A DNA stretch of 64,000 bases from a virus (IMGVR_UViG_3300042286_000208:6287-70286), one strand, 5' to 3'; positions 787-61,762 are shown, counted from the first letter of the stretch. Numbers and translations are program-made. The notes: generated from the sequence alone by a model not told the origin.

Positions 787-3700
787 TTATTCCTCCATTT
801 CTATTATTTCTTCATCGAAGAACCAGTCGTCTTCTAATTTTAATTCTGATCAAATAACTAAATCTTCAGCAAATATCAATGTTTCTCTTGCATTACTTAA
901 ATCTAACTGATGACTTTCTTCATATAGAGTTACTTTATAGCTCATAAAGAAAGAAAGTAGAGAGATTAGGAAGTTCAGGTATTCTTCGTCAGAAAAGTTT
1001 TTGCTTATTGTATTGACAGTGTTTAATAGAGAATATTCTTCAGCACCTGTCATGAACGACAGAATTGTATTTAAACTATTCAATATCGAATTATATTTAG
1101 GCAAGTTCTCTATCTTTTCTGTCTCTGTTATTGTTTCTTGTCTCAACAAATCAACAAAATCTTGCATGAAGTCAGGTAAATCACTATAATTTGTTCCATG
1201 GGTGACTTCTGTCAATATTGTTTCCATCGTCTCATCGTTATAAACACTATCTGATCTTTCAAAGAAAGTTTCAATAACTAAATTAAGTATTCTAACAAAA
1301 GTATTGTTAATAGCTAAGGTATTTGTTACTGATGAATCTTTTAACGTATAATCTTCTTTAAATATTCTATTTTGTGTATAATCCAATAACATTTGTAATA
1401 AAGATCTTAGATTTACTGAATATAAATTACCTATATTAATTGTTTGAGATGAAATACCGTCTATAGCCATTAATTTTAAATATTTTGCCTTAGTTGCTAT
1501 ATAATCGGCTGTAGGTATCTCTATAATTGATATTAAGTTTGTAGATTCTAAAAGATCCAGAATAAATGTTGCTGAGTTTTGATAATCTATCGAGGAATAA
1601 CCAAAACCTAATAATAGTTTTCTTAGTTTATCACTAAAACTATTTTCAACTTTTCCGCTTTGTAATGTTCCATCTAATCTAGAAGTTAAATATGCTTTAC
1701 TTCCTGGAACTGCTTTCACATTATTGATATCTGTTTCATATGCATATCTATTCATAGAGAAAATTGTGCCTTCGATTGAATCATTACTAAGTAAATCGTT
1801 ATCAACTTTGTCTTTTAAGAATTCTTCAATTTCCTCCGGAGTTATATTTCCTATTATTTCTTTAATTTCAGTCTCGAAGTTAGCTAGTTTAGTACTCAAA
1901 TCTGTTAACTTAGGTAAACCATAAAATTTATCGTAAACTTCTCCAGACGTATCTTGTGGTTCTCAAGGCGATAGTACTTCCCCTAGATGTGCATTTATAA
2001 ATTTAATATATTTCACTATATCCGTGTATTTTATATTGGTTAATGAAATATAATCATCCGAATAGCTTTCAATTGTAAGATCGTATTTCATATTATCTAA
2101 CAAGTTATCTAAAATAGACATAATATACATATTCATTATCTTAGCTGTTTCCATATTGATGGATGCAGATATAGAAAGATATTTTGTTTTGGATATATTT
2201 AGGTTTAAACCGTCAGATCCATTTATAAATTCTTGGGTGATATCTTTACTTCAATAACCATCATCCTTTACAAATTCTTCATATCCCACTGTTGTATTTG
2301 AATCAACTCTGTTTTTAATACTCGTAATAGGTCTTGGTGTTCCTTCTGGTAAATTTATAAATACAGTCTCATCTTTAGTTGGGTCATATTTAACTATATT
2401 AATGATTTCTGGTGATGATGAAGGTATTGATTCATAAGGATTTATTATTTCTTGAGTTGTAAACACTGTGTTAGAGGGTGTTAATACCGATACATATTTT
2501 ATTTTTTCAGTAGTGTCATACCATGTGTATCCCACGGTATCGACAGATATGCCATCTTCATCAGTGTAATTATATGTTTCTGGTTCTGATGTAGGAAGAA
2601 CTATATTTTCTTCTACTCAAATAGTGCCGTTATGTGTGTATAAAATATGATTAACTGTATCATACCACATGTCTCCTTCGACTGGTTCGTTTATTACGGT
2701 TGAAGGAACACTCTCTCCCAAGTCCCAAGCACCATCTACATAGGTGTAAAGAGTTGTAGTTGCATTATTATATCATCTATAAGGGATAGGTTTCTCAACT
2801 GTATTTATTGGTGTTGGTTCTCATGAACCCACTTCTCCAACAACTGTTCAAGTATATACATTACCGTTATAATATCATTTATCTACATAATTAATTGAAT
2901 TTTTAGTAGATTTAGCTATGTAGTATTCATTGATAGCTATTTCATATTCATTACTAGATTCGTTAAGCATGTCTTCAATTAATTTCTTAACTCTTCTGGT
3001 TCCTTTGTTTTTAATTAAATTATTGTAATTTCTAATAACTGACATTTTATAGTCAAATGATCCATAGAAATTGTCATATCTATTAAGATCACTCAAACCA
3101 AAACTATTTAAGAAGTTATCAATATCTTCTGAACTATAGCTATCAAGATGTTTATGTTTCGATACTTTTTGATTAAAATATCTATCTAATGCCATTGTTA
3201 TTAAAAGAATAAACTCATATAGAGGGTACTCGTCATCATTAACTAATGATTTAAGTAGTAAATTTCTAAAATAATATTCTCTGACATCTTGATAGCTTCT
3301 AAGGAATAGTGCTATTTCTTGTTTATGCTCTGAATTAATACCATAGTAATATGTTTTGTGGCTATCAAGGTGGTAACCAACTATATCCATGTATTCTTTT
3401 TCTCTAAAGTTAATAACGTTACCCGTTAAAGATTTGACACTAGGGTAATAATGGTTGTTATCTACATCTAGTAATGTATAAGATGTTATATCTAGAGCGG
3501 TAGCTAATTCTCATGCGGATTCATTGAAGTTATTAATATAAATATTATTGAATAAAGAATTTATACTACCAGTTCTTGTTAGCCAGTTAGCTATATATGT
3601 CTCTACCTGATCTTGCATAAATAAATCATACACATCTTTGTTGAGTTCTTTATATTGGAAAGTAAGAGACAACATTCTTTCCCCTGTTATATCTAAGTCC

Positions 3701-5253
3701 TCTCCATTTATTTTTATTTTAAGAATATCGATCATATTTTGAAGTTTTGTTTTGATATCATTATTTACTTTATGTACAACATTAATATAATTAATTGGTC
3801 TGCTTTCAGATATTTGATTTATTTCATATGTATTAACAGCCTTATCTTTTTCTGCAGATATAGTCCCACTCAATGTTTTTATATCCATCAAAATAAAGAA
3901 TTTATACAGATAAATGTAGAGGTGACTTCTAATTACCTCTGACAAGCTATTTTTATAAGTTTCAAAACTGGTTGAATCATCAATAGCATCTGGTGAATCA
4001 CTTATGAAGAAATAGTTTGATACATCAACTTTAAAATCAACTAGTATATCTGGGTCTGTAATCGGATCTGTTCCGTTATATCATCTGAACATATCATTAA
4101 GAAAGCCTTCGAAAGTTGTTTCGTATGAGTCAGGAAAGTCACCTGCCACATAACTGTTTACTGAGTTTTTAAATATGATATGTAACTCATCAGTCTCAAT
4201 ACCTGTAAATTTAATTTGATCATTTACATGTTTTATAGCATCTCTAGCTAATTTTGATACATTGATATTTAGATTAGTAACGCTGTTGAAATAATTTACT
4301 GTGTTGTTTTGAGCATACTCAGTAAGATTTTTTAATATTATACCATTCAGTATGCCATTTGTTTTTATTTCCTCAAGTAAGTTTCTTAGATAACTTTTTT
4401 TAACAGAAAGAACTAGCTCTGTGTTCTCATCTATTTCTTCCTGATCATTTCCTGTTATCATACCCTTGTCGATTAATTTAGTCTTCGTCTCTTCCGATAT
4501 ATACATATTATCAATAAATCTATACATATCTCTTTCAAAGTTACTGATTATATTCGCAGAATATCCTTCAACGATATATTCTCTAGATTTATTATCCTCT
4601 GTCTCCACTAAATCAAGTTTTATTTTTGCTACGACTTGTCCATTATTTATCAGGTTATATTCTATAGGATTTGAACCATCATGTATAAGTAATTCAAAGT
4701 CCATGTTTAACACCATTGTGTTTCCGTTCAGACCTAGATTTAATATTTTACCATCCACGCTGAATTGATTACTCTTTAGTCTGAAAGATTTTACAAAATT
4801 TTCTCTATAGACATTATTAACATAAGGGATAGAAAAAGAATATGTTCTACTACTATCTTGATTTATGTTGTTAGGTGTATCAATAAGTGTTACAGTATAA
4901 GTAAACTTTTCTGATATATTAAAAATATTATATATAGCATTATCACCGATGTTAAAAACCATATATTTATTATATAGGATCATCATCTCAATAAGATCGA
5001 CAGTCGCTATAGGGTTAACAAACTGAGTGAAATATCTATAGGCATATTTATACATCATATTAGATAGATCGTTTTCTGTATAATCTTGTCTTTTTTTGAA
5101 TAAGATATTATGAGATATAAACTCAGTGAGGTTGTTTAAAGCAACCGCGTCAGAACCACTAACTTTGTAAGGCGATGTATAATTGCTCAGCGCCATTCTT
5201 ATTAAGTCTATTTTTTCATTTCTAGTTGCTTTTAAATTGTCAAAATTTGTCAT
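787..5253 (-). CDS. Large virion structural protein, probable baseplate wedge (~1488 aa, 10 TGA=Trp)
   Basis: Six track ORFs (850-5262) are in one frame and joined only by TGA; GAGGTG SD before ATG 5253; first TAA at 787-789; upstream of baseplate-type gene. Confidence 0.75.
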
Positions 5254-5274
5254 AATGCTCACCTCATTTATTTT

Positions 5275-5392
5275 TCTCTATAGTTATTAGTACTATATAT
5301 AGTTATTAGTATATATAGATATTATTAATTAATAAGTAATAAATATAATTATAACTATTATATAGATATTAATTAATAAATTAAATAATAAA
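5275..5392. repeat. Extremely AT-rich tract with short direct repeats
   Basis: TATAGTTATTAGTA x2 and TATATAGATATTA x2; almost no G/C. Confidence 0.7.
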
Positions 5393-6281: not shown

Positions 6282-6485
6282 ATGACTCAAATCAAAATTA
6301 TTAAAAACATCGATATTAATAAAATGGAAAACGATGTCAACTGATGATTGAAACAAAACGACTCAAAGATCAAAGTAAAGAGTGTCGAGGTTAGCTCAGT
6401 TAACAGTCAGCCACCTGCAGTAAAAGGGTTATTCATAACAACGATTACTTATGAAGAAGCATCTACGGTGATTTTACATGATTAG
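6282..6485 (+). CDS. Hypothetical protein (67 aa, 2 TGA=Trp)
   Basis: AAGGAGG SD, ATG 6282, tandem TGATGA in frame, TAG stop; missing from ORF track. Confidence 0.65.
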
Positions 6486-9744: not shown

Positions 9745-9768
9745 TAAATAGAAATAGAGGTGGACGAT

Positions 9769-10833
9769 ATGGCTTACCAAAAATTTAACAGAGATAAAGC
9801 CCTTAATATCAGAATGGGTCAGCACTACGATAATCAAACTTTACTAGAGGAATCTGCTGCTCTAACTCAAGAAGAAAATAAAGATATTGAGATAAATATG
9901 TTAAGAGAGTCTATGACAAGTTATGTTAAGGCTGAAAATGCTGCCAACAATAATGTTATGAGAAGACAAAAATATCTTAATGAATCTAATTGATATGCTT
10001 TAAAAAGCTATATCACTAAACTTTCTATCGATCAAGCTAAGAGCCTTTACGATTTCAAAGCCTTAAAAGAAGAATACGGAATTGATCCAGAGGCTGAAAT
10101 TGAACAAGAAGTTGAAGAAACTCTGATGACAGAAATTCCTTTGACTATAAAAGGCGAAATGGGAACTATTATTCCTATTAAGATTGAAGTAACTCCAGAG
10201 ACAGCTGATGTTGTTCAAGCAGTTATTGGTATAATGGATAAGAATGTCGGGGCAGATAAAGCTCATATGGAAACAGAACAAATAGAAGTTGCTGCAGATG
10301 AAGCAATGTCTCAAGTTCCTGAAGATATGCCTCAAATGACTACAGCTGCTGATAAAATTTCAGACGAAACAATCGGTATCATTTCTAAAGATCAAGAACT
10401 TTTAGCAGATATGAAAGCTAAAATGGATGATTTAGAAGCAAGAGTCTCTGAAAATGAGCAAGTTCTTGGGTTGGCTGGAGAAGAAGAATATATCGAACCA
10501 GATCCAGGTACTACACCAGAAGATGCACCTGAGCTTATACAAGATCCTGAAACTGGTTTATTAGTTGATCCTGAAACTGGAGAAGTATACGATCCAGCAA
10601 CTGGAGAAATTATTAAAGAAGAACTACATAGAGAACATAGAGTTCAAACTATTCTAGAAGCATTAGCAGTTAGAAAAGCCACAAAAACAATAAAAGAAAA
10701 CTATAATGGATATAATAGAGATGTATCTATTGTAGGTGGTATTAACTCTTTAATTATTTTAGAAGCTTTCGACCATGTGTTTGGTAGAACGACTTCTTAT
10801 ACAGCATTAAAGAACAGGTTAAATATTAAATAA
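9769..10833 (+). CDS. Acidic prohead core/inner-head protein (~354 aa, 1 TGA=Trp)
   Basis: Track ORFs 9760-9993 and 10126-10833 join through TGA 9991; many L/I-x-E motifs; DPETG repeats. Confidence 0.6.
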
Positions 10834-10938: not shown

Positions 10939-12762
10939 ATGAAACTGGAAATACTAGATATAAATAAATTCATCAAAGAAAATGATGTGAAAGAAGTCAA
11001 TAACACTATTTTCTTCATAGGTAACCTCCCTCAACCAGGCGGATTATTTGATCCTGAAATATTTGGTTATTTTACCGAGGAAGAAAAATACAAATATGGA
11101 TATATTGATTTAAAAGATAACTATATTCACCCACTAGTTGTTATAAACCTAATGAGAATGGGTTCTCTTGGATCACTATTACTACAACATGATAGCATCA
11201 AAAAGAAATGAGCAAAAGTTGTAGACGGAAAGATAGTTTATGTCAAAAAGACAGAACCAGGAGCAGAAACGGGAAAAGAATTCTATTGAAACAACTTCGA
11301 TAAAATAGATTGGAATAAATCTCTAGGTTATGTCAGAGAAACAAAAGATGAGTACGAAGAAATAACAGATGAAGCAGCTACAGAAGATGTTGAAGAGCTA
11401 GAAAAATTCATAGATGAAGAAATGGATGATTTTTCAGTATCCAAAGCTGGTCGTATAAATTTTATAAAATCTTTAACAAAACAAGAGTTCTTTGTTAATA
11501 AATGGTTGGTCATTCCTAAAGGATATAGAAATATTTCTAGCGAAAGTAGAACATTGGGCTCAGATATAAACAAAGAGTACAGAAAACTATTAACAAATAT
11601 AAATGCTTTATCTAGATTCTCATCAAGTTCTATTTTTGGACTTACTCAAATCCAAGAATACTTAATTCAAAATGTTATTTTGGTAAACTTATTTAAAGAT
11701 ACGATCGGTTTTATAACAGGAAAAAGAGTAGATTTTGATAAATCAACAAACAAACCAGCCCCAACAACAGGTGTTGCCAAGAACTCTAATTTCCAAAATA
11801 AAATTATCGGCAAATCAATTGATTATAGCTCAAGAAATGTAATCATTGCTCCAACTATGGCAACGAAGAATACTTACAAAGAGGTTGATGCACTTGCTGG
11901 TTATTCGGGAATACCTCTTGCATCAATATGTTCATCATTCCTACCTTTCGTTTTAAAACATTCCTATGATATAATCAGGGATCTCGAAATGAACATCGAG
12001 AGACAAATGTTAAAATGAGATGAGACTTTTATTAGAGTAGAACCTTCTTCTAAATTATTTATAGAAAAGCTATTGAAGAGCTTTATTAAATCAGATAAAG
12101 GAAGGATGGATGGATACAATTTTATTCTTATATTTGAAGATGAGAACAAGAGACAGATAAGAAAAGATCACAAAATGGTAGTAAATGTCGCACACAGTAG
12201 AGAAGAATTTAAAAATAAAACTTATAAAAGAAGACATTTCACTGTAACAGATTTATTTTATCAAGCAGCAGCCAAATCTATTGTTGATAGACATGTGCTT
12301 CTGGTTAGATACCCTGTATTAAACCACTTAAATATATTCCCAACAGGTATTAATCTTCTTTCAACAAAAAAAGAAGACAAAGGAGTTTATTTATTATATA
12401 ATTTTAACGTAAACTGATTAGATTCAAACTTCCCTAACGAAGCAATGTTTTATTTCGATAAATATCCACTTATACCAAACTTTAAAGGCGATAGCATGGA
12501 AGTTTTTGAACCAACAACCGAGAACAACACATTTATAGATGCGTTGATACCTGGAAATAGTTCTCTAAAGAGCCTTAATGGTGACTATGATGGTGATACA
12601 TTATCAGTAATCGGGTTATTTTCAGAAGAAGCTAATAAAGAAGCGAGAGAATATATTAATAGTGCTGGTTATTTTGTTACCAGTACAAATAAAAATATTA
12701 GGTCAATTGACTCTATCGGTAAAGAATATGTTATGGGATTATATATGTTGACGAAGGATTAG
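10939..12762 (+). CDS. Phage multisubunit RNA polymerase beta-prime N-terminal subunit (607 aa, 4 TGA=Trp)
   Basis: Four track ORFs joined by TGA at 11209, 11287, 12016, 12415; catalytic LNGDYDGD (NADFDGD-type), GLFDPEIFG, GKSIDYSSRNVI, RYPV motifs. Confidence 0.9.
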
Positions 12763-12771
12763 GTGAAGGAT

Positions 12772-13296
12772 ATGTTAATTAAAGAAAGTTTTGTTAAAAA
12801 GATTCCTGTGAATCAAGTATTAAAAGAAAACGGGGATGCTATGGAGTATTATATGAATCATCCCGAAGAACATTGAAAAGTCCTAATCGATAAGTTTGAA
12901 GGAAGCAGAGTGAAATTCAAGAACTGATGTGAAAAAGCTTATTTAGGACCCAGAGGATCCAAAGGAGCAGATCAGGCGAAATACGATAAAGCGATGGCAT
13001 ATTTCGATAGTCAACAATCATCTTTAAATGAATCATTTCAATATGAAGATATTTTAAAGATGTCATATGACGATATTCTTACCAAAAACAATGGGAATCT
13101 GATGCAGACGCTAAGAGATTTAAATTCCTTTATGTCATCTATACAGGGAACTGATAATGATGAAGAAAGAAAAGCTTATTTTAAAGCTAAAAACTTTCAC
13201 GTCAGATTAGTCAGAGACACCAACGAAAAAGATCCACAAGAACTAAAAAAGAAAATAGATAAGAAAATTAAAAAAGCAGAGAAAAGAAATAGATAA
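12772..13296 (+). CDS. Hypothetical, probable head protein (174 aa, 2 TGA=Trp)
   Basis: ATG 12772 in frame with track ORF 12994 via two TGA; IKES/LKEN/LNES motifs. Confidence 0.6.
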
Positions 13297-13321: not shown

Positions 13322-13333
13322 TATATATTATTA
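13322..13333 (+). promoter_or_regulatory. Putative early promoter motif TATATATTATWA
   Basis: Recurs before clusters of small genes; heads the 13375-23839 cluster. Confidence 0.5.
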
Positions 13334-13374: not shown

Positions 13375-13656
13375 ATGAGAAAAAGAGAATTACAAAGAAT
13401 AGAACATGAAAAATATTTATTGAGATCAGCATGGTCTAGTTTAAGTTTGAGTGGGTTAAGTCAAGACCTTGATGATGATTTTAAAATTATAGAGAATTAT
13501 TTCATACATAATTCAGGTTCAATCGAAGATGCAAAAAGATCCCTTTATAATGTAAGAGATTATCTTGGTGGCATGGATATATACGTGTCCGAAGGATATG
13601 ATGAATGTTTTGATTATTTTATAAACACTATAAAGACTAAAGAAAGAGGTAACTAA
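13375..13656 (+). CDS. Hypothetical protein
   Basis: GAGGAGG SD, 93-aa ORF. Confidence 0.75.
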   Translation: MRKRELQRIEHEKYLLRSAWSSLSLSGLSQDLDDDFKIIENYFIHNSGSIEDAKRSLYNVRDYLGGMDIYVSEGYDECFDYFINTIKTKERGN

Positions 13657-14295
13657 ATGAAAGTAACTTTATTATCACATACACCAGAAGCTATTAAAGT
13701 GGCATTCACTGCAATAAGAACATGTTATTCAGCAAACGATCAAGATTATATTTGGAATGAAGAATTTGACAAATATAAGGAAAAGAATGATGATCACATT
13801 AGACTTATTAAACAAATTTTAAATCATGGACACACTTCCACACTAGAACATATAACTTTTAATTTTGCAGTCAATGGTGTTAGTAGATCGCTACTGGCAC
13901 AATTAACAAGACATAGAATTGGATTCAGCTATAGTGTTCAAAGTCAGAGATATGTAAAAATGTCTACCGATAGTAAACATGGAACATTTGAATTCGTTAC
14001 ACCTCCTGGTATTATGAGTGTAGATTCATTGTTGGTTTATGATCAAATAATGGAAGAAATACAAAAAGCTTATGATAAATTGGTAGACATGGGTATTCGA
14101 GCAGAGGATGCTAGATACGTTCTACCCAATGCAGCCACAACCAACATAACAATCTCTTTCAATCTCAGAGCATTCCTTGATTTTTACAGTAAAAGAAATC
14201 CAGAGACACACGCACAATGGGAGATTCAAGAACTGGCAGAGAGTTTTAGAAAAGAGATTGAAAAAGCGGAATCGTGGACTAAAGAACTGTTTTAG
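13657..14295 (+). CDS. thyX: Flavin-dependent thymidylate synthase
   Basis: RHRIGFSYSVQSQRY ThyX motif; GHTSTLEH; ARYVLPNA. Confidence 0.95.
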   Translation: MKVTLLSHTPEAIKVAFTAIRTCYSANDQDYIWNEEFDKYKEKNDDHIRLIKQILNHGHTSTLEHITFNFAVNGVSRSLLAQLTRHRIGFSYSVQSQRYVKMSTDSKHGTFEFVTPPGIMSVDSLLVYDQIMEEIQKAYDKLVDMGIRAEDARYVLPNAATTNITISFNLRAFLDFYSKRNPETHAQWEIQELAESFRKEIEKAESWTKELF

Positions 14296-14323
14296 AAAAT
14301 GAAAAAGAGGACGGTGTAAAGTA

Positions 14324-14563
14324 ATGCCAGATCTACATTATCATTATTATTTTAGCGTGAATAAACTATGCGAAACACCAGAGGGTAAATCAAAGTATAT
14401 AAAAAACAAAGCATATTTTGATAGTTTGAATTTAAAAACATGTTATCCAACAAGCTCCAAAGAAAACTGTTACTACTATTGTTTTATTACACCAGCAGGC
14501 CCAAATAGATTTAAACGAGTTACAAAATTGGGAGTTGTGTCACAAATTTATGGATACAACTAA
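14324..14563 (+). CDS. Hypothetical protein, paralog of next gene
   Basis: Shares YYFSVxKLCET...SSKENxYYYC with 14580-14810. Confidence 0.7.
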   Translation: MPDLHYHYYFSVNKLCETPEGKSKYIKNKAYFDSLNLKTCYPTSSKENCYYYCFITPAGPNRFKRVTKLGVVSQIYGYN

Positions 14564-14579
14564 TAATTAAAAAAAGGAG

Positions 14580-14810
14580 ATGTTTGTAATGCCAACACCA
14601 ATTTATTATTTTAGCGTAAAAAAATTATGTGAAACATTATATGGTACTTCAATGTATAAGAAGAATAAAGTATATTTTGATAGACTAGACGGCAGAAGAT
14701 GTTACAAACCAAGTTCAAAAGAAAATGGATACTACTATTGTTCTTTAAAAGCATGGTCAAGAGCAAAAAGAGTTACAAAATTAGCTATAAGAGTAGAATA
14801 TAACTACTAA
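14580..14810 (+). CDS. Hypothetical protein, paralog of previous gene
   Basis: Tandem duplicate; AAAGGAG SD. Confidence 0.7.
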   Translation: MFVMPTPIYYFSVKKLCETLYGTSMYKKNKVYFDRLDGRRCYKPSSKENGYYYCSLKAWSRAKRVTKLAIRVEYNY

Positions 14811-14894
14811 TAAGGAGAGATATAAAATATGAGAACAGTAGAACAAATAGAAATTATACATGAGTGTAAAAAACTCTTAAATGGGGGACAATAA

Positions 14895-16139
14895 ATGAGA
14901 AATTTAGCACATATTGAAAAAGTAAACGATATCAAACCGATTTTTCTAAAAGAAAATAACGTAGAGGCAGATGCAATTTGTCTTTATAGAGTTTTAGGAT
15001 GGTGGGTTGTTGGCAAGAAAGGAGAATACAGTATTGGTGATAACGTAGTGTACATTGAAATTGATTCAAAAGTACCTGCTACAGAAGATCCAAACGATTA
15101 TTTCTATTTCTTGGAGAAAAGAAACTTCAAAGTTAAAACAATGAAATTAAACAAGTTTTATTCCTCTGTGATGCCCGAAGCTGTTATCAGCCAGGGATTG
15201 CTTGTACCTATGGATGTAGTTATGCAAAAAGTAAGATGGGTTAAAGAACCTTCTGAAGGAACTGATGTTACCGATATTCTTAAAATTGAAAAAATTGAAG
15301 ACGAAACGAAAGAAATTCGTATAGTTGATCATTCAAAACAATTCTATAAAAAACATAGTAAATTCTTTAAAACAAAACTCGGAAAATGGTTGATGAAAAA
15401 AGAGTGGTTTAGAAATTTTATTAAAAAAATCACTACAAAAAAAGCACCAATAAAAAAATTCCCATCATATATTACTAAAACAGACGAAACACGTGTTCAA
15501 GCACTACCTAAGTTGTTTGAGCAATTAAGAGACAATAAGACAGTTTTACAAGTAGCAGAAAAACTTGATGGGACTTCATCCACATATGGATTAAGAAAAA
15601 ATGGAAGAAAATTTGATTTTGTTGTATCTTCTAGAAATATTATCCAGGCAGACGAAAGACAAAAAACTTGGTATTCTGATGCTAGCGTAAACTATTATTG
15701 GGAAATGGCAATCAAATATAACATCGAGGAATTATTAAAGAATTTATTCGTCCTTCTCGGTGCAAAAGATTTTGTCTATTTACAAGGAGAAACAATCGGA
15801 CCAGATATTCAGAGCAACAAGTATCATTTGAAAGAAAGAAAGTTATACGCTTTTAACCTTGTAGTGGACGGGAAGAAAATAAACTCCCTTGAAGCTAGAA
15901 TGGATTTACTGGCAGCACAAAAACAGATGAACATCTCTGATGAACAAGCAATGAGCTGGGTTCCTATTCTGGAGGAGAGTTATCTACTTCCAGATACAAT
16001 TGAAGAACTTATGACATATTCAACTGGTAAATCAGTATTATATGACACATTACGTGAAGGTATAGTATTAAGAGATGCAGAAAATACTGTATCTTTTAAA
16101 GCAGTATCTCCAGAATTTTTATTGAAACACAAATTATAG
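14895..16139 (+). CDS. RNA ligase, Rnl2/DRB0094-like
   Basis: EKLDGTS motif I, LQGETIG, REGIVLR, FKAVSPEFLLK; N-terminal OB-like module. Confidence 0.9.
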   Translation: MRNLAHIEKVNDIKPIFLKENNVEADAICLYRVLGWWVVGKKGEYSIGDNVVYIEIDSKVPATEDPNDYFYFLEKRNFKVKTMKLNKFYSSVMPEAVISQGLLVPMDVVMQKVRWVKEPSEGTDVTDILKIEKIEDETKEIRIVDHSKQFYKKHSKFFKTKLGKWLMKKEWFRNFIKKITTKKAPIKKFPSYITKTDETRVQALPKLFEQLRDNKTVLQVAEKLDGTSSTYGLRKNGRKFDFVVSSRNIIQADERQKTWYSDASVNYYWEMAIKYNIEELLKNLFVLLGAKDFVYLQGETIGPDIQSNKYHLKERKLYAFNLVVDGKKINSLEARMDLLAAQKQMNISDEQAMSWVPILEESYLLPDTIEELMTYSTGKSVLYDTLREGIVLRDAENTVSFKAVSPEFLLKHKL

Positions 16140-16160
16140 TTAAGAAAGGAAGTGTCGGTT

Positions 16161-16400
16161 ATGGATTTTAAAGAAGTATTAGAGGCACTTAAAGCAGGTC
16201 TTCCTGTTAAAAGAAAAGAATGGGATGGATATTGGATTCTCGAGAGTAAAAATAAAATTGTTATACATTTGAAAGAAGGAAACGATTTAAATTTACTTGA
16301 CACTGACGACATAATGTTCACTCTTTCACACACCACTAAAAATGATTGGGAGATTGCAACCCCAGAAAATTGCAAAAGATTGAGAGAGGATAAAGAATAG
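16161..16400 (+). CDS. DUF2829/Tad2-like protein (candidate anti-defence sponge)
   Basis: MDFKEVLEALKAGLPVKRKEW...NDWEI matches DUF2829 pattern. Confidence 0.65.
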   Translation: MDFKEVLEALKAGLPVKRKEWDGYWILESKNKIVIHLKEGNDLNLLDTDDIMFTLSHTTKNDWEIATPENCKRLREDKE

Positions 16401-16429
16401 GATAAAACCTATTCTTTATTATATCAATT

Positions 16430-17122
16430 ATGGAAAGAAAAAAATTTGAAGAAACTCAAAAACTAATATCTAGATACGTTATGGTTATAGCCGATGTCAA
16501 AAACTCAAAGGTTATTTTAAAAACACGAGATGGCAGAAAAGCTTTCCAACATTTATTAAATGACACAAGAGAAATATTAGAAAAACCTGAAGTTATTCAA
16601 TTTGAAGATTCTGGTGTTAAATTTAGATTAATAAGAAAAGGTGACTGTATAGGATTTGTTTTTGATAAAAACACAGACTATGACAACATATCTTCTATAC
16701 TAAACGAATGGGACGATTTACTTAAAAAGAGCGGACTAAAATTCCATAGAAATCAATGTGCCATACCTTCTTTAGATAACTATATGGAGCACTTCATTTA
16801 TCTAGAGAAAGATTCTAAGGAAGCAGATATTGAAAACACAGATACTACAAAAAACAAAACAATCAATATATCATTAGAAGTAGATGTAGAGGATTTCATT
16901 GAAGAAGACTACGTTAGAACGGAGATTGAGCATGCTATAAACAGTTATGATTGGCATGTGAATTCTATCAGTGTCAAGACTAATAAACAAAATATAACAA
17001 AAGAAGAAGTACATGAAGCAAGAGAAATTTTGTTTAAATTTGCAACAATAAGCGAGAAGCTTGATTTAATAGAAGGTCGTAAACTAAATAAAAAATTAGG
17101 TAAATTTATTGACGATAAATAA
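16430..17122 (+). CDS. Hypothetical protein with SatD/class III cyclase-like N-terminus
   Basis: VMVIADVKNS ... RKGDCI two-Asp spacing; weak. Confidence 0.35.
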   Translation: MERKKFEETQKLISRYVMVIADVKNSKVILKTRDGRKAFQHLLNDTREILEKPEVIQFEDSGVKFRLIRKGDCIGFVFDKNTDYDNISSILNEWDDLLKKSGLKFHRNQCAIPSLDNYMEHFIYLEKDSKEADIENTDTTKNKTINISLEVDVEDFIEEDYVRTEIEHAINSYDWHVNSISVKTNKQNITKEEVHEAREILFKFATISEKLDLIEGRKLNKKLGKFIDDK

Positions 17123-17133
17123 GGAGATCAATA

Positions 17134-17391
17134 ATGGAAAACAAAATTGAAGTAATAAATTATCAATATTATAACAGAAGTGAATCAGGGAGAACAGATG
17201 ATCAAAAGCTAGAGGTTGTCAAGATCGCTGAAACAAATGAAAAATCTTGTCTGAAGTGCGCACACTTTACAAGAGTAAGTCAAATTGATAACGGCAAATG
17301 CCATGTTCATTATAATAGACATGACGTACACGATGTATGCCCAAGATTCGAAACACCTGAACAATGGGCTAAAAGATTGTTTGGTAAATAA
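17134..17391 (+). CDS. Hypothetical Cys/His-rich protein
   Basis: AAGGAG SD; CLKCAHF...C...C..F. Confidence 0.7.
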   Translation: MENKIEVINYQYYNRSESGRTDDQKLEVVKIAETNEKSCLKCAHFTRVSQIDNGKCHVHYNRHDVHDVCPRFETPEQWAKRLFGK

Positions 17392-17392
17392 T

Positions 17393-18310: not shown

Positions 18311-18331
18311 ATAGTGAAAAGAGGGAATACA

Positions 18332-19078: not shown

Positions 19079-19088
19079 GGAGAAAATT

Positions 19089-19646: not shown

Positions 19647-19668
19647 GATTGGAACAGAGAGGAGTTTT

Positions 19669-19869
19669 ATGGCTAGAAGATTTGTAATATTAAGTACAGG
19701 TAATGGTAATTTGCTCATCCCTGAAACAAAATATAATAAAAAAGAAGAATTACAAATACATCATGTAATTGGCTATGGAACAAAGAGACGCCTTAGAAAA
19801 GAAGGCTGGGACTTAAGAAAAAAAAACAAAGGAGAAATAAGATGGACGCAGAAAAATATATTGTTGTAA
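19669..19869 (+). CDS. Hypothetical basic protein
   Basis: GAGGAG SD, 66 aa. Confidence 0.6.
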   Translation: MARRFVILSTGNGNLLIPETKYNKKEELQIHHVIGYGTKRRLRKEGWDLRKKNKGEIRWTQKNILL

Positions 19870-20078: not shown

Positions 20079-20081
20079 ATC

Positions 20082-20648: not shown

Positions 20649-20649
20649 C

Positions 20650-20868: not shown

Positions 20869-20870
20869 CA

Positions 20871-21122: not shown

Positions 21123-21129
21123 GAGAAAA

Positions 21130-21747: not shown

Positions 21748-21823
21748 TGAGAGAATGGTTTTGGATCATTGTGCATTTAGTTGCATTGCTATTATTAATT
21801 GGATTAAGGAGAGAGAATAAATT

Positions 21824-22378: not shown

Positions 22379-22380
22379 GT

Positions 22381-45261: not shown

Positions 45262-46575
45262 ATGATAATTAATGAGGGAAAACTATCAGAATTAAATGAA
45301 AAATATAAAGAATTAATAGAACAGAATCCAGAGTGGATAAAAGCAGCAGACAGAAGAAACAGACAACATATAATAGGCGTGCAGACTTTTGCCAAAAAAA
45401 TAGGTTATGCTTTTGAAGATCATGACGCTGATAAATTTGAATCACTATATGTTCCTTATGTTTTGATATCTATCGGTTATAATAGAGATTTTAATAAAGA
45501 TTTAACAATAGATGAAGAAATGGATAGCTTCATGAGATGGGCCACTTATAGTCATGTTACAAATAATTCACATCATCCTGAACATTGAGATTTGGAATCA
45601 GCAAGAATTAACAGTGCTATATCCTATAAAAACCGTGACGGAGCCAGAAATAGTATTATTGATGCTTCAAAAATGGATGAAAAATCAATTATAGAAATGT
45701 GCTGTGACTGGGCATCAGTGGGAGCTGAACGTGGAAATTCCCCGCAATCTTGGTTTGAGATAGGATTGAAGGATAAGTGGAAATTCACAGAAGAACAACA
45801 AGATCTTATCTGGAAAACTCTAGAAAAATTATGGCCAGGTGGTCGAAAAGAAACTGCAAAAGTAGAACATGAAGAAAGATACTTCAATGATAGAATATGG
45901 GAAATGTTAAATAAAGCATGGGATGAGTATAACAGCTCTAAAAAAAACAGTTTAGAAGAATCTTATAATTTTAGTGATTTTGAAAATGCTATAAATATAT
46001 TTTCTCAGGAAAAAGATAAGTTCTCTGATGTTATGGGGACCTTAAAGCAAAGAGGATATGAACCGGTGGTTACACTTCCAGGAGTAGGATCTCTTCAAGC
46101 TATATCTTTTCTCTTCTCTCCAGCAGTTACTAATTATGTTTTAAATCTTTTAGATTCAATTATAAACAAGAGTTACACGGTAACAGGCAGTGATAGCATA
46201 GTTAAATCAATGAATTTAGATAAAATTGAGCTAGGTGGTCAATACGGAACAAAATCTAAAATTTCAAGCAACTTTGCTAATGGAATCATGAGATCTCTAG
46301 AGAAAATAAATCAAAGTAAATTAAAAAATAAAGTTCTATTGGTCACTAAGTTTGTGAAAGATCTAAAAAGACATGCAAAAACAATAAGTGATAAAGTAGA
46401 AAAAGAAGAATATTTGGAAGATGTTAAAGCATTCATGAAGGTTATTGGTATTGTCAAAAACATAATCAACAATAGAAATCATTTTGCAAACGTTTTACAA
46501 AAAACACTTTTATTACAAGAAAGTGGAGAAGAAATAATAAGTGAATCGTTCCTAAATATATACGAGGGAATATAA
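45262..46575 (+). CDS. DUF5662/HD-like metal-binding protein with LxE motifs (437 aa, 1 TGA=Trp)
   Basis: HVTNNSHHPEH(TGA) and IIEMCCDW; two track ORFs join in frame. Confidence 0.65.
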
Positions 46576-46632: not shown

Positions 46633-47589
46633 ATGGCTAAAACAATTAAAGAAATAAGAGATAGAGATCAATTCTTTACCAAAGAAGAAGTCAGTTTGAA
46701 CTGTATAGAAATAACCAATAGATATGTTAATTTAATAAAGCCTTCATTGGGATTCACTTTCTATGTGGAACCATCTGCGGGTAACGGAGATTTCTATAGA
46801 AACCTACCATCTGAGAGAACAATAGCCTTCGACATAGAGAAGCCAACACATGTTGATGATTTATATACAAGTTATGTAGAAACTGATTTTCTTGGCGTTG
46901 GACCTCTGATAGAAAACGGGATATACATAGGGAATCCGCCGTTTGGTAAACGAGGTAAAAAGGCTTTTGATTTTATTTTAAAATGTATTGATCTGGATGC
47001 AGCAATTATTGCTTTTATACTTCCTCCAAATATAAATACAAAGTTGAGATTAACCACCATAAGAGAAAAAGGATATGAAATTGTTCATATTGATGCTTTA
47101 AAACCAAATAGTTTTTATTTCTACAACGGAGAAGAAATATCCGATGTATCTGCAGAGTCAAATTTTCAAATATATATGAGAAAAGATCTAGTAGAAAAGA
47201 CTAACAACGATATAATAGTAGATGTAAATCTTAAAAATAATAATTTTGTTCAGGTATATACAATAAATGATAATGAAATTTTCAATACAGGCAGAGATAC
47301 AAAAGATAAAAAATTTGTTCAAAAAGGCATTGGTACGAAATGAATAGGGAAGTGCGACTTCTATATTCCCCTCAGAGTGTTTAACTCAGCCGGGAAGCCA
47401 ACATATAAAGATTCATTTATGGATAATTTTTTCTCTAACATAGGATTTGGGGTAATATGTCAGGATAAAGACATAAAAAATAAAATAAACATTGAAAACT
47501 GTTATACAGTTGGAATAAATAAAGTAAGAATAGCCAAAAAACAACTTATTTTAAAGGAAATAATGAGAGTTAAAGGGCTTGAAAGGTAG
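46633..47589 (+). CDS. DNA adenine methyltransferase (318 aa, 1 TGA=Trp)
   Basis: VEPSAGNG SAM motif I and IGNPPFG motif IV; read-through at 47341. Confidence 0.8.
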
Positions 47590-47598
47590 TGATTAAAA

Positions 47599-48795
47599 AT
47601 GAATAAATATAAGTGAAATAAATATGGGTTGCCAGCAATTGCGGCATTAGCAATACTGGCAGCTATATATATGATACAGCTAAACTTCGGTGACTATTTG
47701 GCACAAATATGAGATGCCTTTAAATCAGTAGCCATTCCGGCTGCTTTAGCGGTATTTATATCTTATCTAATACGACCTATGTATCGAAAAATGGTGGATA
47801 GGGGATTAAATAAATCTTTATCCGCACTATTATCAATGTTAGTGTTCATTCTGATATTTGGTGGCTTCATGACACTTGTTGTTGTGATGGTAACTATACA
47901 AATAAAAGAGCTAACACAGAGTGGATTATCAATAGTAAATGTAGATTTGAGCTGGGTATTTGGATTGATGCCAGAAGAAGTAGTTGTGGCAATAACAAAT
48001 ACATCAGGCCAACTGGATTTAATGAAGACATTTAATTATCTTGTCGAAACTGGAAAAATTAATCTATCAACAAATATATTTACAACCACAGTCAATAGTG
48101 TGGTGGGTATTATTTATTGGTTAATTGTTATTATTATGATGCCAGTATTTCTATTCTTCTTTTTAAAAGAAGGAGATACTATTGCAAAATCTATAATATC
48201 TTTCATACCAAAGAAATTTCACAGGGAAGACTTTGATGTAATGTTTCAGCTTGCGCATGTATCTACTGAAAAATATATGAGAGGAAAAATAATTTCAATA
48301 GGCTTTTTGGCCGGTTTCTTCTCAGTATCGTTTACTATTGCACTATTATTTTTTACACCAATAAGTATAATATCTGCGATTCTTTATGGATTACTATTTG
48401 GATCTATTATAGCTATACTCGATCTAGTGCCATATATTGGCCCGGGTATAGGTATAATCCTTCCATTATTATTTATTTTAATTTCATCAGCAAATTTCAC
48501 ACAGTTTCTAATATTTGGGCTAGTTTTCATCGCTATTGATATAATCGGTCAAAACTTGCAGAAAATGTTAATAGAGCCTATGGTCATGAGCAAGGAGATT
48601 GAAATACATCCATTAGCAATATTCTCTGGGCTGCTGTTTTTCGGAGCTCTATTTGGACTAGTCGGTTTAATAGTGGCTACACCTATTGTTGCGACACTTA
48701 GAAGTATATATAGATATCTAAATGGTAAATATAACGATGAGGCTATAGAGACAATAATAAATAAAGATTTAGATAAAGATGGAGAAATAGGTTAA
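47599..48795 (+). CDS. AI-2E family (PerM/TqsA-like) transporter (398 aa, 2 TGA=Trp)
   Basis: ISYLIRP, LVPYIGP, IHPLAI...GALFGLVGLIVATP; ATG 47599 in frame via TGAs. Confidence 0.85.
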
Positions 48796-53757: not shown

Positions 53758-53784
53758 AACTATTAAGTAAAATAGGTGATTACT

Positions 53785-54669
53785 ATGAGAAAACTGACTA
53801 CTGATGAATTTGTGTTAAGAGCAAAAGATGTACACAATGATCTTTATACATACACCAAAACAACATATATAAATACATCTACTAAGTGTATTATTACATG
53901 CAAAAAACATGGTGACTTTATACAAACACCCAGAAATCATCTTCAGGGACAGGGATGTCCTGTGTGTGAAAAAAAAAGAAGGAAGAGCTGAAATAAAGAT
54001 AAGATCATTGAAAAAAATGTTTACATTGATAGAGTTAAAGATTCATGTGAGATTAATAACCTTAAATTTATTGAACTATCTAAAAAAAATAAATGGGGAG
54101 CCATAGTTCAGTGTAATAAGTGTGGTTATAAATATGACGTTTATTCATATGATATAGATAGATTTGGATGCCCTAAGTGTGCAAACAAAAGAAGATCTGA
54201 ATTTCAAAAAAGAACGGGATTATGAAAGAAAAATTTGAAAACAAATGGTGAATTCAAACACTTACTGGCATCGAGGACACAATATGAGGGATTGGAATAT
54301 AAAAGGTCTTCGTATGAAGATGATATATATAATTATGTTTCTTTATTTGTTGGTGAAGAGATTATATTGATCAATGACAGAAGTGTTTTATATCCATATG
54401 AGTTAGATATTTATTTACCTAATTTAAAAATTGCTTTAGAGTTCAACGGAACCTATTGACACAATAAGGATGTTTGAGAAGAATATAAATCTAAAGAAAA
54501 TTGCGAATATGACCAATGTAGAGAACAATACAAGTATTTAGAATGCAAAAAAAGAGACATAAAATTAATACATGTATGAGAAGATGATTGGTTGAAGGAT
54601 AGTGACAGTATTCTTAAAAATATAAAAAAGGAGATAATTTATGCCAGAGAAAAAAACATCAGAGGCTAG
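53785..54669 (+). CDS. Free-standing Zn-ribbon + DUF559/PD-(D/E)xK-like endonuclease (5 TGA=Trp)
   Basis: CKKHGDF, CPVC, CNKC, CPKC; YELDIY...ALEFNGTY(TGA)H and LIHV(TGA)EDDW. Confidence 0.8.
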
Positions 54670-56925: not shown

Positions 56926-56945
56926 ATTGAAATGAGGTGACTACT

Positions 56946-57386
56946 ATGAGATTTGTAGCAGGCGACGTGGTATTTACAGATAACGCTAAACAACTATTAC
57001 CGGATATCAGTATATTCGATAGAATAATAAAAAGTGAACCAACTATATTAGAAAATAAGATGTGAAGAAAACAAATAGGTCTCACTACTAGCGGCATAAG
57101 TTCTGGTTCAATAGGATCTACAATAGATAATATATTCTATAGAAGTTGTTACCTAATATACAAAAGTGGAAGCAATATACAGAGCAGTAATGTAAGTTTT
57201 ACTGTCACAAATATTGTTTCTGGGGAGGCTATACCTTCTGAAGAGTTTAAGAATTGAGGTTTGGTCCAAATAGATGAAGGATTATACTTATTGTTTATAT
57301 GAATAGATATAGAACAAAGGTATACATTCAATTTAAATACCAATGTTTTTAATTCAGAAGATTGGTTTATTCAGGTGGTGATATAA
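56946..57386 (+). CDS. Hypothetical late protein (146 aa, 3 TGA=Trp)
   Basis: GAGGTGA SD; TAA overlaps next ATG; missing from track. Confidence 0.7.
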
Positions 57387-58288
57387 TGGAAAAGAGACAT
57401 TATTTAGAAGTATCTAATGCAGATATATCATCTATAAACTCTATAAATAGAGTTGTTTCTGTTGGTGGTCAAGTGACTGGTTATTTGATAAATAACAATA
57501 ACTACAATTTACAATTAGATGAACAATATGAACTATTGGTAACTTTACCAGCAAATCAACCATATAGTGGTGTCATAGCACATTCAGATACAACAGAGAC
57601 ATGGACAAAAGATGGCCTATATCTGCATAATAGTGGTCTAGAAGGATCAGTTGGTTTCAAAAAGGTATATATTAAAGACTTTTTGGAATCAATACCTGAG
57701 AGCTATCAATCTAAAATGATAAATGATTTATTGAATGATCCCTCAGTTTTAGATGGAATGGCTTCAAGTTTAATAAATAACACGATATATCCTAAAGAAT
57801 TTAGCATAATATATATAAATGATAACCAATGAGGAATACAAGACCAAATAGTTGCCTATGTGAGTAATATTTATTATATAAACAGTATGAATGACTATGT
57901 CCCTTATCAAAATACAAGTAATTTATATAATTCAGCTTGGGCCGTGCCTGATACTATATATGATCCAGATGCAAAAACTGCAGGTCTATTAAGTAATGGG
58001 ATAAGAAAAGACATGGTTATAAAATCAAAAAAATTGATTTATGTTGTTAGATACGAGGGAATGTTGATTACGGATACCACTAATTATTTTGGAGATACAG
58101 GTTTAGTATATCTAAACACAACAGAAATAGGTGGATTAGCATATCAGATGTATCTTAATCCTAAGTTTCTATACGATGTAAATGGTGAAATGATCGATCC
58201 ATTGGTTCAATCGGCGTGTCAAACTATATATATAGAAGATGCATTTAAACACGAAAATCTTAAAGGAAAGATTTTAAAGGTGTGGTAA
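57386..58288 (+). CDS. Hypothetical late protein (300 aa, 1 TGA=Trp)
   Basis: Track ORFs 57362 and 57860 in frame via TGA 57830. Confidence 0.7.
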
Positions 58289-59882: not shown

Positions 59883-60197
59883 ATGAAAGCATATGTATTA
59901 GTAAAAGATACCATACCACTAGGAAAAGCTATAAATTCCTGTGTTCATGCAGGAGCCTTGATAAATGTTCATTTCCCAAGAGATAATGACCCCATCATGG
60001 AAGAATGATGGAATGATAGCTTTAGAAAAGTAACTTGTAAAGTATCAGAACAAATGTTTGAGAAAGCAAAAGAATTTAAAGACTGGTTCGCAGTTACAGA
60101 ATTAACTTTAAATAAAAAAGAAACAATATTGGTTTTTAAACCAAGACCAGATGAAGAATGGCCCACATTTTTTAAATATTTAACATTATATAAATAA
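59883..60197 (+). CDS. Peptidyl-tRNA hydrolase 2 (Pth2)-like protein (104 aa, 1 TGA=Trp)
   Basis: KAYVLVKDTIPLGKAINSCVHA...EE(TGA)WNDSFRKVTCKV...TILVFKP...LTLYK follows the Pth2 pattern; missing from track. Confidence 0.6.
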
Positions 60198-60213
60198 AAA
60201 AGGAGAAAAGACT

Positions 60214-60591
60214 ATGAAATGATTTAAAAAACCTATTGAAGTAAGATTTGAAATTTATGATAAATCTGGTGTAGAGAACACTAGAGAAGGAGAAGCACCT
60301 TACGAAGCAGGAGACTATAAAATGACTGGCGTCGAGGGTGAAATCTGGCCTATGAAGCCAGAAGTCTTTAACAAAAACTACGAAGTAATAGACGAAGAAG
60401 AAGGAATTGCTAAAAAGAGAAAAGTGCTTGTGGATGTTAAGTTTGCTTCCGAAGATACAAAAGTAACAACAGCTTGGGGCGCTTTGTTAACGGCAAAAAA
60501 AGGAGATGCTATTGTATCTGCTAGTGCCGAAGATAGATGGGTTGTTTCAAGAAGTATATTTGACGAAACATATTTACCAGAGGAGGATTAG
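60214..60591 (+). CDS. Duplicated PGDYG-like domain protein (125 aa, TGA at codon 3)
   Basis: TREG...AGDYKMTGVEGEIWP...FNKNY and TAWG...KGDAIV...RWVV...FDETY. Confidence 0.6.
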
Positions 60592-60592
60592 C

Positions 60593-60853
60593 ATGTATAA
60601 ATTAGTATACACTTCCAACCCTAAAATGGAACACCATCTTCAAGAAGAATTTGATGTTTATATAAATTCAAGTCTACTGGCGGTAAATAAAGAGGGAAAG
60701 GGTTTTTCAACAAGTAAAGTAATAGACACTTCCGCAATGATGGAAGCGGGTATTATAGTGAAAACAAAAAACTCAGTTTATATATTTGCCTATATAAACA
60801 ATAAAGTCGTATCAGAATTCTCTGGGTTCGGGTTTCTGAAAAGAGAGAATTAA
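60593..60853 (+). CDS. Hypothetical protein
   Basis: GAGGAGG SD, 86 aa. Confidence 0.7.
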   Translation: MYKLVYTSNPKMEHHLQEEFDVYINSSLLAVNKEGKGFSTSKVIDTSAMMEAGIIVKTKNSVYIFAYINNKVVSEFSGFGFLKREN

Positions 60854-60857
60854 AAAT

Positions 60858-61292
60858 ATGACACCGAATAAATATAATGTTGATCTAGAAACAATTACAT
60901 CTGTGGATGAAATGTTTCTAGCTCATAAAATAAAAGGAATTAAATGCAACCGCAGCATTCAACCAAACGAATGATCTTGTGATGAATGGAATAGACTTGG
61001 CTATGAGAGCAAGAATGAGTGTTTGATAAAACAAGAAGTTGATTTAACATTTTATTGAACAGGTCATGATGAAAACGGAGATTACTTCTCAACTTGAGTT
61101 TGTTTTGATTTTGATAAAAAAACATGGTTTGGGAATACAATAGATAAACACACTATGGAGTGAATGAGATTGGATGAAGACAGTATTGAGCATTATGTAA
61201 ATTATCATTGTAATACGGGTAGTGTTTTTGATATGGATATATCAAAACTAATATTTCTGAAATTGCAAGAATTAGGATGGTTAAAAATATAA
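60858..61292 (+). CDS. Hypothetical protein (144 aa, 4 TGA=Trp)
   Basis: Fills gap exactly; stop overlaps next ATG. Confidence 0.7.
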
Positions 61293-61762
61293 TGATTATA
61301 TCAGGATTTGCTGGAATAGGAAAAACAACTTTGGCATCTAAAGAAGAGGGTGTTGTTGATTTAGAGTCAGGTAATTTTAAATGACTGATAACAGAAGAAC
61401 AATCAAATCTTTCTGCTGAAGAAAGAAAAGGCTTGACAAAAGAACAGAATCCAGAATGACCAGAAAACTATATTTCTGAAATGGTAAGATTAAATAAAGA
61501 AGGAAAAATGGTATTAATATCTATGGACCCTCAAGTTAGACAAATTTTACAAGACAGAGGGATAGATTTCATATTAGCCTATCCTAAAAAATCATCTAAA
61601 GAAATATTTGTGCAGAGGATGAAAAATAGAGGTAATAATGAAAAATTTATTGAATTAATAGAAGGTCATTTTGAAGAGTGAATTGATGATTTGGACAAGC
61701 AAACACAATTTAAAATAATATTGGATGGAAATGAATATTTATCTGATAGATTTCAAAAATAA
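61292..61762 (+). CDS. P-loop nucleotide kinase-like protein (156 aa, 3 TGA=Trp)
   Basis: IISGFAGIGKTT; DLESGNFK(TGA); NPE(TGA)PENYI. Confidence 0.75.

Follow-up and report, generated by a model that had tools for sequence, protein, structure and literature searches.

Does a virus whose long reading frames are interrupted again and again by TGA use this codon as a stop or as an amino acid, and, if the latter, by whose decoding machinery? The question is raised by a stretch of viral DNA of 64,000 nucleotides (nt), IMGVR_UViG_3300042286_000208:6287-70286, which we call the window (the whole stretch analysed; G+C content 31%). A preliminary description, made from this sequence alone, had read the in-frame TGAs between positions 787 and 61762 as tryptophan (Trp, W) codons. 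Following up this claim, we confirm the observation: the phage translates TGA as Trp, most probably by a programme of its own in a host that reads TGA as stop.

TGA-to-Trp recoding in phages is known, as the preliminary description had pointed out. A published model for TGA-recoded gut phages holds that, during infection, a suppressor tRNA from the phage reprogrammes a host with the standard code, with early genes kept compatible with the host and the recoded stop gathering in late genes; in Jade phages, the suppressor tRNA, a tryptophanyl-tRNA synthetase (TrpRS) and release factor 1 (RF1) share one operon, adjacent to the lysis genes and termed a 'code change module' (bioRxiv 10.1101/2021.08.26.457843). 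The recoding itself, its late-gene bias and the combination of phage TrpRS with suppressor tRNA are thus already published. The additions made here are a link to the transcription scheme of phage AR9, an early promoter on the suppressor tRNA, the A73 base of this tRNA, a search that did not find RF1, and a TGA-free capsid gene.

These points matter beyond a single phage. In this phage and its relatives, code 11 (TGA as stop) misannotates roughly one gene in three, including the virion RNA polymerase (RNAP), tail proteins and endonucleases. The recoding is tied to a transcription programme known from experimental mapping in AR9, so that promoter words, instead of guessed function, separate early from late genes; classes defined in this way make the idea of a code switch during infection sharply testable. 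Owing to a group I intron, the predicted UGA-reading tRNA escapes default tRNA finders, and tRNAs hidden by introns may partly explain why published surveys find suppressor tRNAs in just about a third of TGA-recoded phages.

Gene calling and gene ends

Counted from codon positions and curated, the in-frame TGAs between 787 and 61762 number 61 and fall in 23 credible genes, close to the roughly 60 in about 24 genes of the preliminary hand count. This number leaves out five small antisense open reading frames (ORFs) and TGAs located 5' of likely true starts; a crude greedy ORF call returned 71-72 TGAs in 27 ORFs. Code 11 splits many long frames, and code 4 (TGA as Trp) rejoins the pieces. Calling genes under both codes had been proposed as a check of the Trp reading, and code 4 gave the best non-overlapping ORF set of all codes compared, with 90.7% coverage, a median length of 187 amino acids (aa) and 10 strand switches, versus 81.8%, 145 aa and 18 under code 11. 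Taking TAG or TAA as sense yielded 84-87% coverage, below that of code 4, and 26-29 strand switches. Code 4 restored full-length genes without fusing genes.

Gene ends were consistent with these results. Every gene lacking an in-frame TGA ends in TAA or TAG, which extends the ends sampled in the preliminary description, and no gene in the window needs TGA as its stop. Across the whole 258-kb genome to which the window belongs (see below), a TGA lies 12 or fewer codons from the end in just 8 of 288 ORFs, and TGA is therefore at most a rare stop.

In principle, the fragments could still be short genes or pseudogenes that end at TGA, or could be joined by low-level readthrough by a host tRNA-Trp(CCA). 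Every fragment is an ORF under code 11, and low-level UGA readthrough by tRNA-Trp is known in Bacillus. We nevertheless consider this explanation highly improbable: matches to single-domain families cross TGAs, TGA and TGG interchange between relatives whose frames stay open, genes with 10 to 18 TGAs are beyond low-level readthrough, and a dedicated tRNA(UCA) is predicted.

TGA at tryptophan positions in homologs

To place the TGAs in homologous proteins, we used relatives found via the TGA-free capsid protein (54-87% identity) and took eight loci around them. The window TGAs were masked as X and compared with these loci by tblastn. Opposite the TGA sites of the window stand 39 TGA, 20 TGG and 23 other codons; the latter are mostly AAA, with GGN, TGT and TGC entirely absent. 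Opposite the TGG sites stand 140 TGG and 28 TGA. Such free exchange of TGA and TGG in open frames is the behaviour expected of synonymous Trp codons.

Distant homologs provide a second view, mainly in four genes, all on the plus strand:

25920..26621: LAGLIDADG homing endonuclease, 3 TGAs; PF03161 matches residues 10-185 at 2e-22 and crosses two TGAs.
28093..28392: thioredoxin, 3 TGAs and 0 TGGs; PF00085 at 2.7e-16; codon 23 is the W of WCxxC.
45262..46575: DUF5662 protein (PF18907), 1 TGA (HHPEH-W) and 9 TGGs; W109 nearly invariant.
53776..54669: endonuclease with zinc-ribbon and nuclease-like parts, 5 TGAs and 2 TGGs; late motif 33 nt upstream.

In the thioredoxin, codon 23 (nt 28159; DFYAD-W-CxxC in the preliminary description) aligns with the W of WCGPC in solved thioredoxins of the PDB and is TGA or TGG in relatives; two other positions face different residues in the PDB alignments, codon 33 an I and codon 73 either an F or a K. 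Codon 109 of the DUF5662 protein, the HHPEH-W site, is W in 11 of 12 aligned sequences, a count that includes the window's own TGA read as W, and is TGG or TGA in relatives. For the endonuclease at 53776..54669, PDB and Pfam searches gave no clear family, and a library search did. With the TGA masked as X, the EFNGTY-X-H column is W in 131 of 144 diverse homologs (91%) and the HV-X-EDDW column in 100 of 145 (69%). Among about 145 cluster representatives of its C-terminal domain, just three columns are dominated by W, and these correspond to two TGAs and one TGG; of the three TGA sites that this domain contains, two thus fall in W-dominated columns. Pfam matches likewise extend across several in-frame TGAs. 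The thioredoxin WCxxC site, HHPEH-W and the two endonuclease sites EFNGTY-W-H and HV-W-EDDW had been singled out as invariant Trp positions from the window alone, and both the homolog columns and the tally of codons facing TGA, another check put forward at that stage, bear out that choice.

Three independent lines of sequence comparison, i.e., TGA/TGG interchange, W columns in distant homologs and family matches across TGAs, thus support the assignment of TGA to Trp. That TGA encodes some other residue, be it glycine (as in code 25), cysteine or selenocysteine, is scarcely credible. Such a reading could draw on the wastewater origin of the phage, since Absconditabacteria and Gracilibacteria, the code 25 hosts, are common in wastewater, and on the behaviour of ARAGORN, which under code 11 gives every UCA anticodon the label SeC. 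It is contradicted by the homolog columns, which are W, by the zero GGN, TGT or TGC codons opposite TGA in relatives, and by the predicted tRNA, whose 7-bp acceptor stem and short variable loop are unlike those of tRNA-Sec.

A joined 258-kb genome related to AR9

The window sits in a 134,286-bp IMG/VR record that CheckV rates 47% complete. A reverse transcriptase gene at the right end of this contig is also present on an independent Logan contig that reaches 10 kb further, and a protein encoded on the extension recurs at 100% identity in a second IMG/VR record, which is 124,311 bp long (CheckV, 48% complete). The two records overlap by 127 nt at 100% identity, and the Logan contig equals the joined sequence at 100% identity over 12,309 nt across the junction. 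The joined genome measures 258,470 bp and is that of a jumbo phage distantly related to Bacillus phage AR9. At the assembly break (G000:C1:133820-134286 / start of G001, reverse strand), G+C-richer non-coding DNA lies downstream of the reverse transcriptase, which is of retron type. Wastewater metagenomes from several studies contain the same DNA.

Over 99% of its length, the capsid protein shares 25% identity with its AR9/PBS1 counterpart (E = 3e-34), and it is also homologous to capsids of phiR1-37 and of Staphylococcus and Listeria jumbo phages. RNAP genes are present as a virion and a non-virion set, each with split beta and beta-prime subunits. AR9_g089, which encodes the beta-C subunit of the non-virion RNAP (PMC5449584), has its ortholog in a 685-aa protein elsewhere on the 134-kb contig. 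A megablast search of 24 kb against phage records gave no match. One apparent host clue was rejected: L001 (GCA_900198705.1, FZPS01000205.1), a 1.26-Mb 'contig' with a capsid homolog, consists of 1- to 5-kb pieces joined by runs of 100 Ns. It mixes phage and Fibrobacter-like genes and is unfit for host inference.

Promoter words separate TGA-poor early genes from TGA-rich late genes

In AR9, early promoters follow AAATATATATTAT-6N-G and late promoters AACA-6N-TA/G (PMC5312081). Two words prevail in front of the genes of the present phage. The most frequent word in the 134-kb contig is the 16-mer TGAATAATTAATTATA (22 to 23 copies). It contains AATA-6N-TA, one mismatch from the AR9 late motif, and we regard it, judging from sequence alone, as a putative late promoter. 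Its core, GAATAATTAATTAT, occurs 17 times in the window, 20-60 nt upstream of genes. The early core, TATATATTAT, is that of the mapped AR9 early promoter and occurs 38 times; G is enriched 6 nt downstream of it, standing there at 22 of the 38 sites. Window positions are as follows, (-) marking the minus strand:

35867..35880, plus strand: late-promoter core GAATAATTAATTAT, one of the 17 copies.
Other late-core starts: 5959(-), 6155, 9662(-), 9730, 24024, 30727, 32632, 38410(-), 41900(-), 42126, 44791, 45207, 52509(-), 53743, 56911, 58576.
13322..13331, plus strand: early-promoter core TATATATTAT, as in the AR9 early consensus.
Other intergenic early cores: 23863, 30655, 38883(-), 42851, 45144, 51642, 62273.

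Each gene was assigned to the nearest upstream intergenic motif, early or late, which resulted in two classes with distinct Trp codon use:

Late-promoter class: 187 TGA and 245 TGG, TGA share 0.43.
Early-promoter class: 23 TGA and 186 TGG, TGA share 0.11.

The odds ratio is 6.2 (Fisher 8e-18), and several of the early-class TGAs sit before probable true starts, i.e., are start-codon artefacts. For Lys, Glu, Gln and Leu, 75-84% of codons in the A/G pairs end in A in both classes; for Trp, the corresponding values are 42% late and 7% early. With the other pairs at about 80%, TGA is therefore nearly absent from early genes and falls short of this level in late ones. Neither this concentration in late genes nor the decoding genes on the other genome half could be seen in the preliminary description.

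The contrast can be followed in the genes that make the transcription machinery and the virion:

10939..12762, plus strand: virion RNAP beta-prime N-terminal subunit, 607 aa; 4 TGAs and 2 TGGs; phrog_2986 at 1.5e-53.
13375..23095, plus strand: early-promoter block of about 22 genes including an RNA ligase (phrog_968), behind the early motif at 13322; 0 TGAs and about 40 TGGs.
35907..37577, plus strand: virion structural or head-tail joining protein (PF24214, phrog_3013); 6 TGAs and 1 TGG; late motif 40 nt upstream.
38943..40655, minus strand: major capsid protein (phrog_20655) in a late-promoter operon; 0 TGAs and 8 TGGs.

The RNAP paralogs are a natural control for the early/late split: the non-virion subunit, which is early, has 0 TGAs and 6 TGGs, and the late virion subunits have 4 and 5 TGAs. 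The subunit at 10939..12762 resembles rpoC1/gamma chains in the PDB and carries the NGDYDGD metal motif. Its best phage matches are rpoC1 genes of AR9-group phages, and a coordinate offset between Goe21 and AR9 suggests that it corresponds to AR9_g145, annotated as a virion RNAP subunit.

The capsid gene departs from its class. Its operon (38441-41821, minus strand) has a late promoter and no TGA throughout, and aligned Trp codons of the capsid in eight relatives are TGG in 62 of 64 cases and never TGA. The pattern hints at selection against TGA in the late gene with the highest expression. The virion gene at 35907..37577, near the capsid operon, swaps TGA and TGG freely, unlike the capsid gene; its TGA sites across seven relatives hold 27 TGA, 10 TGG and 5 other codons.

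A predicted decoding kit on the other genome half

ARAGORN detected no tRNA in the window, and the sole tRNA that ARAGORN and Rfam report on the 134-kb contig is a tRNA-Met(CAT). In the second half, 27 ordinary tRNAs, which together serve all 20 amino acids and include tRNA-Trp(CCA), form an island of 20 kb; a plain, unsplit tRNA(UCA) was not found in this half. A weak tRNA match there corresponds to a tRNA gene of 297 nt (G001:90361-90657) in which a group I intron of 223 nt separates position 34 from position 35. The intron scores 56.4 bits against Rfam RF00028 (gathering score 50, E = 4e-13), a match listed under permissive filters only. The conserved P1 U.G pair of the intron model falls at the exon end ...GGUCUU, and this is the sole 5' splice site that, with an intron ending in G, restores a tRNA. 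Spliced in silico, the product is a 74-nt normal cloverleaf with the loop CUUCAAA and the anticodon UCA, called tRNA-Trp(tca) by ARAGORN. With introns allowed, ARAGORN labels the split gene tRNA-Val(tac), which we rejected as a miscall.

The predicted tRNA(UCA) has a 7-bp acceptor stem and a short variable loop and is therefore not a tRNA-Sec. Its nearest phage tRNA is tRNA-Trp(CCA) (72% identity), and its discriminator base is A73, against G73 in the phage tRNA-Trp(CCA). It possesses its own consensus early promoter (core, then 6N-G) with a predicted start 45 nt upstream; tRNA-Trp(CCA) lies behind two late motifs. An unrelated 179-kb metagenome contig (a large phage contig) carries a homologous tRNA(UCA), interrupted at this site by an intron of 629 nt. 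An exact scan of IMG/VR with the 5' exon returned its own record only, and a metagenome scan with the 668-aa neighbour of the tRNA gave no match.

The second half further encodes a TrpRS that hits TIGR00233 with 232 bits (cutoff 176.75). In the PDB, tryptophanyl-tRNA synthetases account for all of its best matches; to TrpRS in records labelled Staphylococcus and Listeria, its identity is about 40%. The gene lies in an early unit and has no TGA:

147752-148747, combined coordinates: TrpRS, with tRNA(UCA) near 167,800, about 19-20 kb apart.

No domains of RF1, RF2 or TrpRS were detected on the 134-kb half, and RF1/RF2 (PF00472, PF03462) were found in neither half of a genome of which, by CheckV, about 5% may be missing. 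An alternative decoder of the type described by Hirsh, in which a tRNA-Trp(CCA) with U11-A24 misreads UGA, became needless once tRNA(UCA) was found.

Several minor features touch the tRNA genes. The lone tRNA-Met(CAT), at G000:C1:99932-100008, stands about 70 nt behind an early-promoter core and far from the main tRNA island. In tRNAs of metagenome contigs L068, L089, L110 and L075, a second hairpin comes after the UCA anticodon arm and duplicates the CCA anticodon arm of Trp; in L075, an intron of 629 nt is present as well. The tRNA(UCA) of the present phage is without a second arm. Just downstream of tRNA(UCA), within the tRNA island, two ORFs of 64 and 257 aa (G001, reverse strand, 34674-35663) have 4 and 2 TGAs and no TGG in an early-headed unit, an exception to the early/late rule. 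A match to the c-di-GMP-I-GGC riboswitch aptamer (RF03167; 62.4 bits, gathering 59; L031:11657-11736, minus strand, equal to G001:94657-94736) directly adjoins tRNA-Val in the same island.

Who imposes the code?

Taken with the promoter classes, the predicted kit points to a time-dependent code switch imposed by the phage on a standard-code host, as published for Jade and Agate phages. In such a scheme, the injected virion RNAP would transcribe the tRNA precursor early, the precursor would self-splice, and phage TrpRS, host TrpRS or both would charge tRNA(UCA) with Trp; once the non-virion RNAP produces late mRNAs, the TGAs in these would already be readable. Early genes would avoid TGA because they are translated before it can be read. 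The under-use of TGA in late genes and its absence from the capsid suggest that suppression is costly or competes with host RF2.

The main competitor is a host that itself uses code 4 (Mycoplasmatales-like, without RF2), with the phage simply matching it and tRNA(UCA) and TrpRS being ordinary members of a translation set. The failure to find RF1 or RF2 in either half, the phage tRNAs for all 20 amino acids, the shared +4 context of TGA and TGG, and the near-complete absence of TGA stops even from early genes all fit this explanation, and GTDB places Mollicutes among the Bacilli, the class of most known hosts of the phage's relatives. It leaves unexplained, however, why TGA makes up 7-11% of Trp codons in early and 42-43% in late genes, and both shares are far below the roughly 80% A-ending codons expected of a host-matched code 4 genome at this G+C content. 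The capsid gene, with TGG at 62 of 64 aligned Trp codons in eight relatives and TGA at none, is equally at odds with it, and the TGA-free non-virion RNAP and TrpRS genes fit a need for translation before a switch. We therefore regard a code 4 host as unlikely.

Some observations weigh against a phage-imposed switch or weaken individual parts of it. G73 is the usual bacterial Trp identity element, so that with A73 the charging of tRNA(UCA) with Trp is not assured. As the phage tRNAs cover all 20 amino acids, tRNA(UCA) could be a mere part of a full set, and a default gathering run of Rfam over 24 kb did not list its intron. No RF1 was found, unlike in the published Jade module. The early/late split is strong yet has exceptions: TGA is missing from some genes of the late class (heterogeneity p = 1.5e-6) and occurs internally in a few of the early class. 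At the base that follows the codon, TGA and TGG show no difference (p = 0.43), which gives no direct sign of competition with RF2. Lastly, capsid-based scans of IMG/VR and of GTDB genomes found no host, and we infer its standard code from codon statistics alone.

A more specific version of the phage-imposed switch is conceivable, and we put it forward as a tentative idea that we hold to be doubtful as a whole. Here, the early promoter, the self-splicing A73 tRNA(UCA) and the divergent phage TrpRS as its main charging enzyme would form a self-contained, timed switch around a quasi-orthogonal pair that operates without a phage RF1. Late TGAs would then act as a lock that ties the synthesis of virion proteins and endonucleases to completion of the early programme.

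Comparison with known systems

Judged by its features, the phage has a close parallel in the Jade phages. In both, TGA stands for Trp, the recoded codon is found above all in structural, late and homing-endonuclease genes, and the code-change genes are free of TGA; both combine a phage UGA-reading tRNA with TrpRS, have large genomes (about 200-260 kb) and are assigned standard-code Firmicutes-type hosts by inference. The present phage differs in that no RF1 was found in 258 kb and that its tRNA and TrpRS, lying 19-20 kb apart, do not form a single operon. Further differences are the group I intron that splits the tRNA, the A73 base and the origin from wastewater.

With AR9/PBS1, the phage shares the homologous capsid (25% identity), orthologs of AR9_g089 and AR9_g145, the early core TATATATTAT-6N-G and a genome size of about 258 kb. 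AR9 has one tRNA versus about 29 here, and the late motif of the present phage is a strict 16-mer that merely resembles AACA-6N-TA. Genes in the AR9-group records compared here are annotated intact, and we know of no report of recoding in AR9-group phages.

Among cellular systems, Mycoplasma and Spiroplasma (code 4) similarly use a tRNA-Trp(UCA) that reads UGA as Trp beside tRNA-Trp(CCA). Their code is cell-borne, they lack RF2, and TGA prevails over TGG in all of their genes; in the present phage, TGA is instead a minority Trp codon whose use depends on the time of expression. Cyanobacterial and plastid tRNA-Leu(UAA) are familiar cases of group I introns in the anticodon loop. The intron described here agrees with them in its location between positions 34 and 35, after U, and in ending with G, and differs in residing in a stop-reading phage tRNA that standard tRNA finders miss or miscall. 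A 2026 survey of jumbo phages mentions introns in tRNAs of recoded phages (PMC13037316). The crAss-like and Lak phages also reassign a stop in late genes with a phage suppressor tRNA, in their case TAG to Gln, i.e., another codon, amino acid and phage lineage, and proteomic proof of TAG recoding exists for them (PMC7886860, PMC9523058).

Other recoded genes of the window

The remaining TGA-bearing genes of the interval are listed below.

787..5262, minus strand: late-promoter gene of unknown family (large virion or tail-like protein), 1491 aa; 10 TGAs and 5 TGGs; five fragments under code 11.
6282..6485, plus strand: late ORF of 67 aa behind the late motif at 6155; two adjacent TGAs (N-W-W-L).
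9760..10833, plus strand: late gene of 357 aa; 1 TGA.
12763..13296, plus strand: late gene of 177 aa; 2 TGAs (NHPEEH-W).
29175..30652, plus strand: two genes of 266 and 225 aa; 1 and 2 TGAs, with TGA or TGG at these sites in relatives.
31078..31323, plus strand: gene of 81 aa; 2 TGAs.
34784..35794, plus strand: GNAT acetyltransferase-like gene (PF13302, PF00583); 2 TGAs, codon 202 being TGG in 5 of 5 relatives.
37607..38407, minus strand: late gene of 266 aa; 1 TGA.
46633..48795, plus strand: gene of 318 aa (1 TGA) and AI-2E family transporter (2 TGAs; PF01594 at 1.3e-40).
56937..58288, plus strand: two late genes of 149 and 308 aa; 3 and 1 TGAs.
59883..61762, plus strand: four small genes with 1, 1, 4 and 3 TGAs; the last, with an AAA_18-like kinase fold, ends the interval.

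The 1491-aa product of the first gene had no Pfam or PHROG match. At 6282-6485 (plus strand), a naive ORF picker favours the antisense frame over the 67-aa ORF with its two adjacent TGAs.

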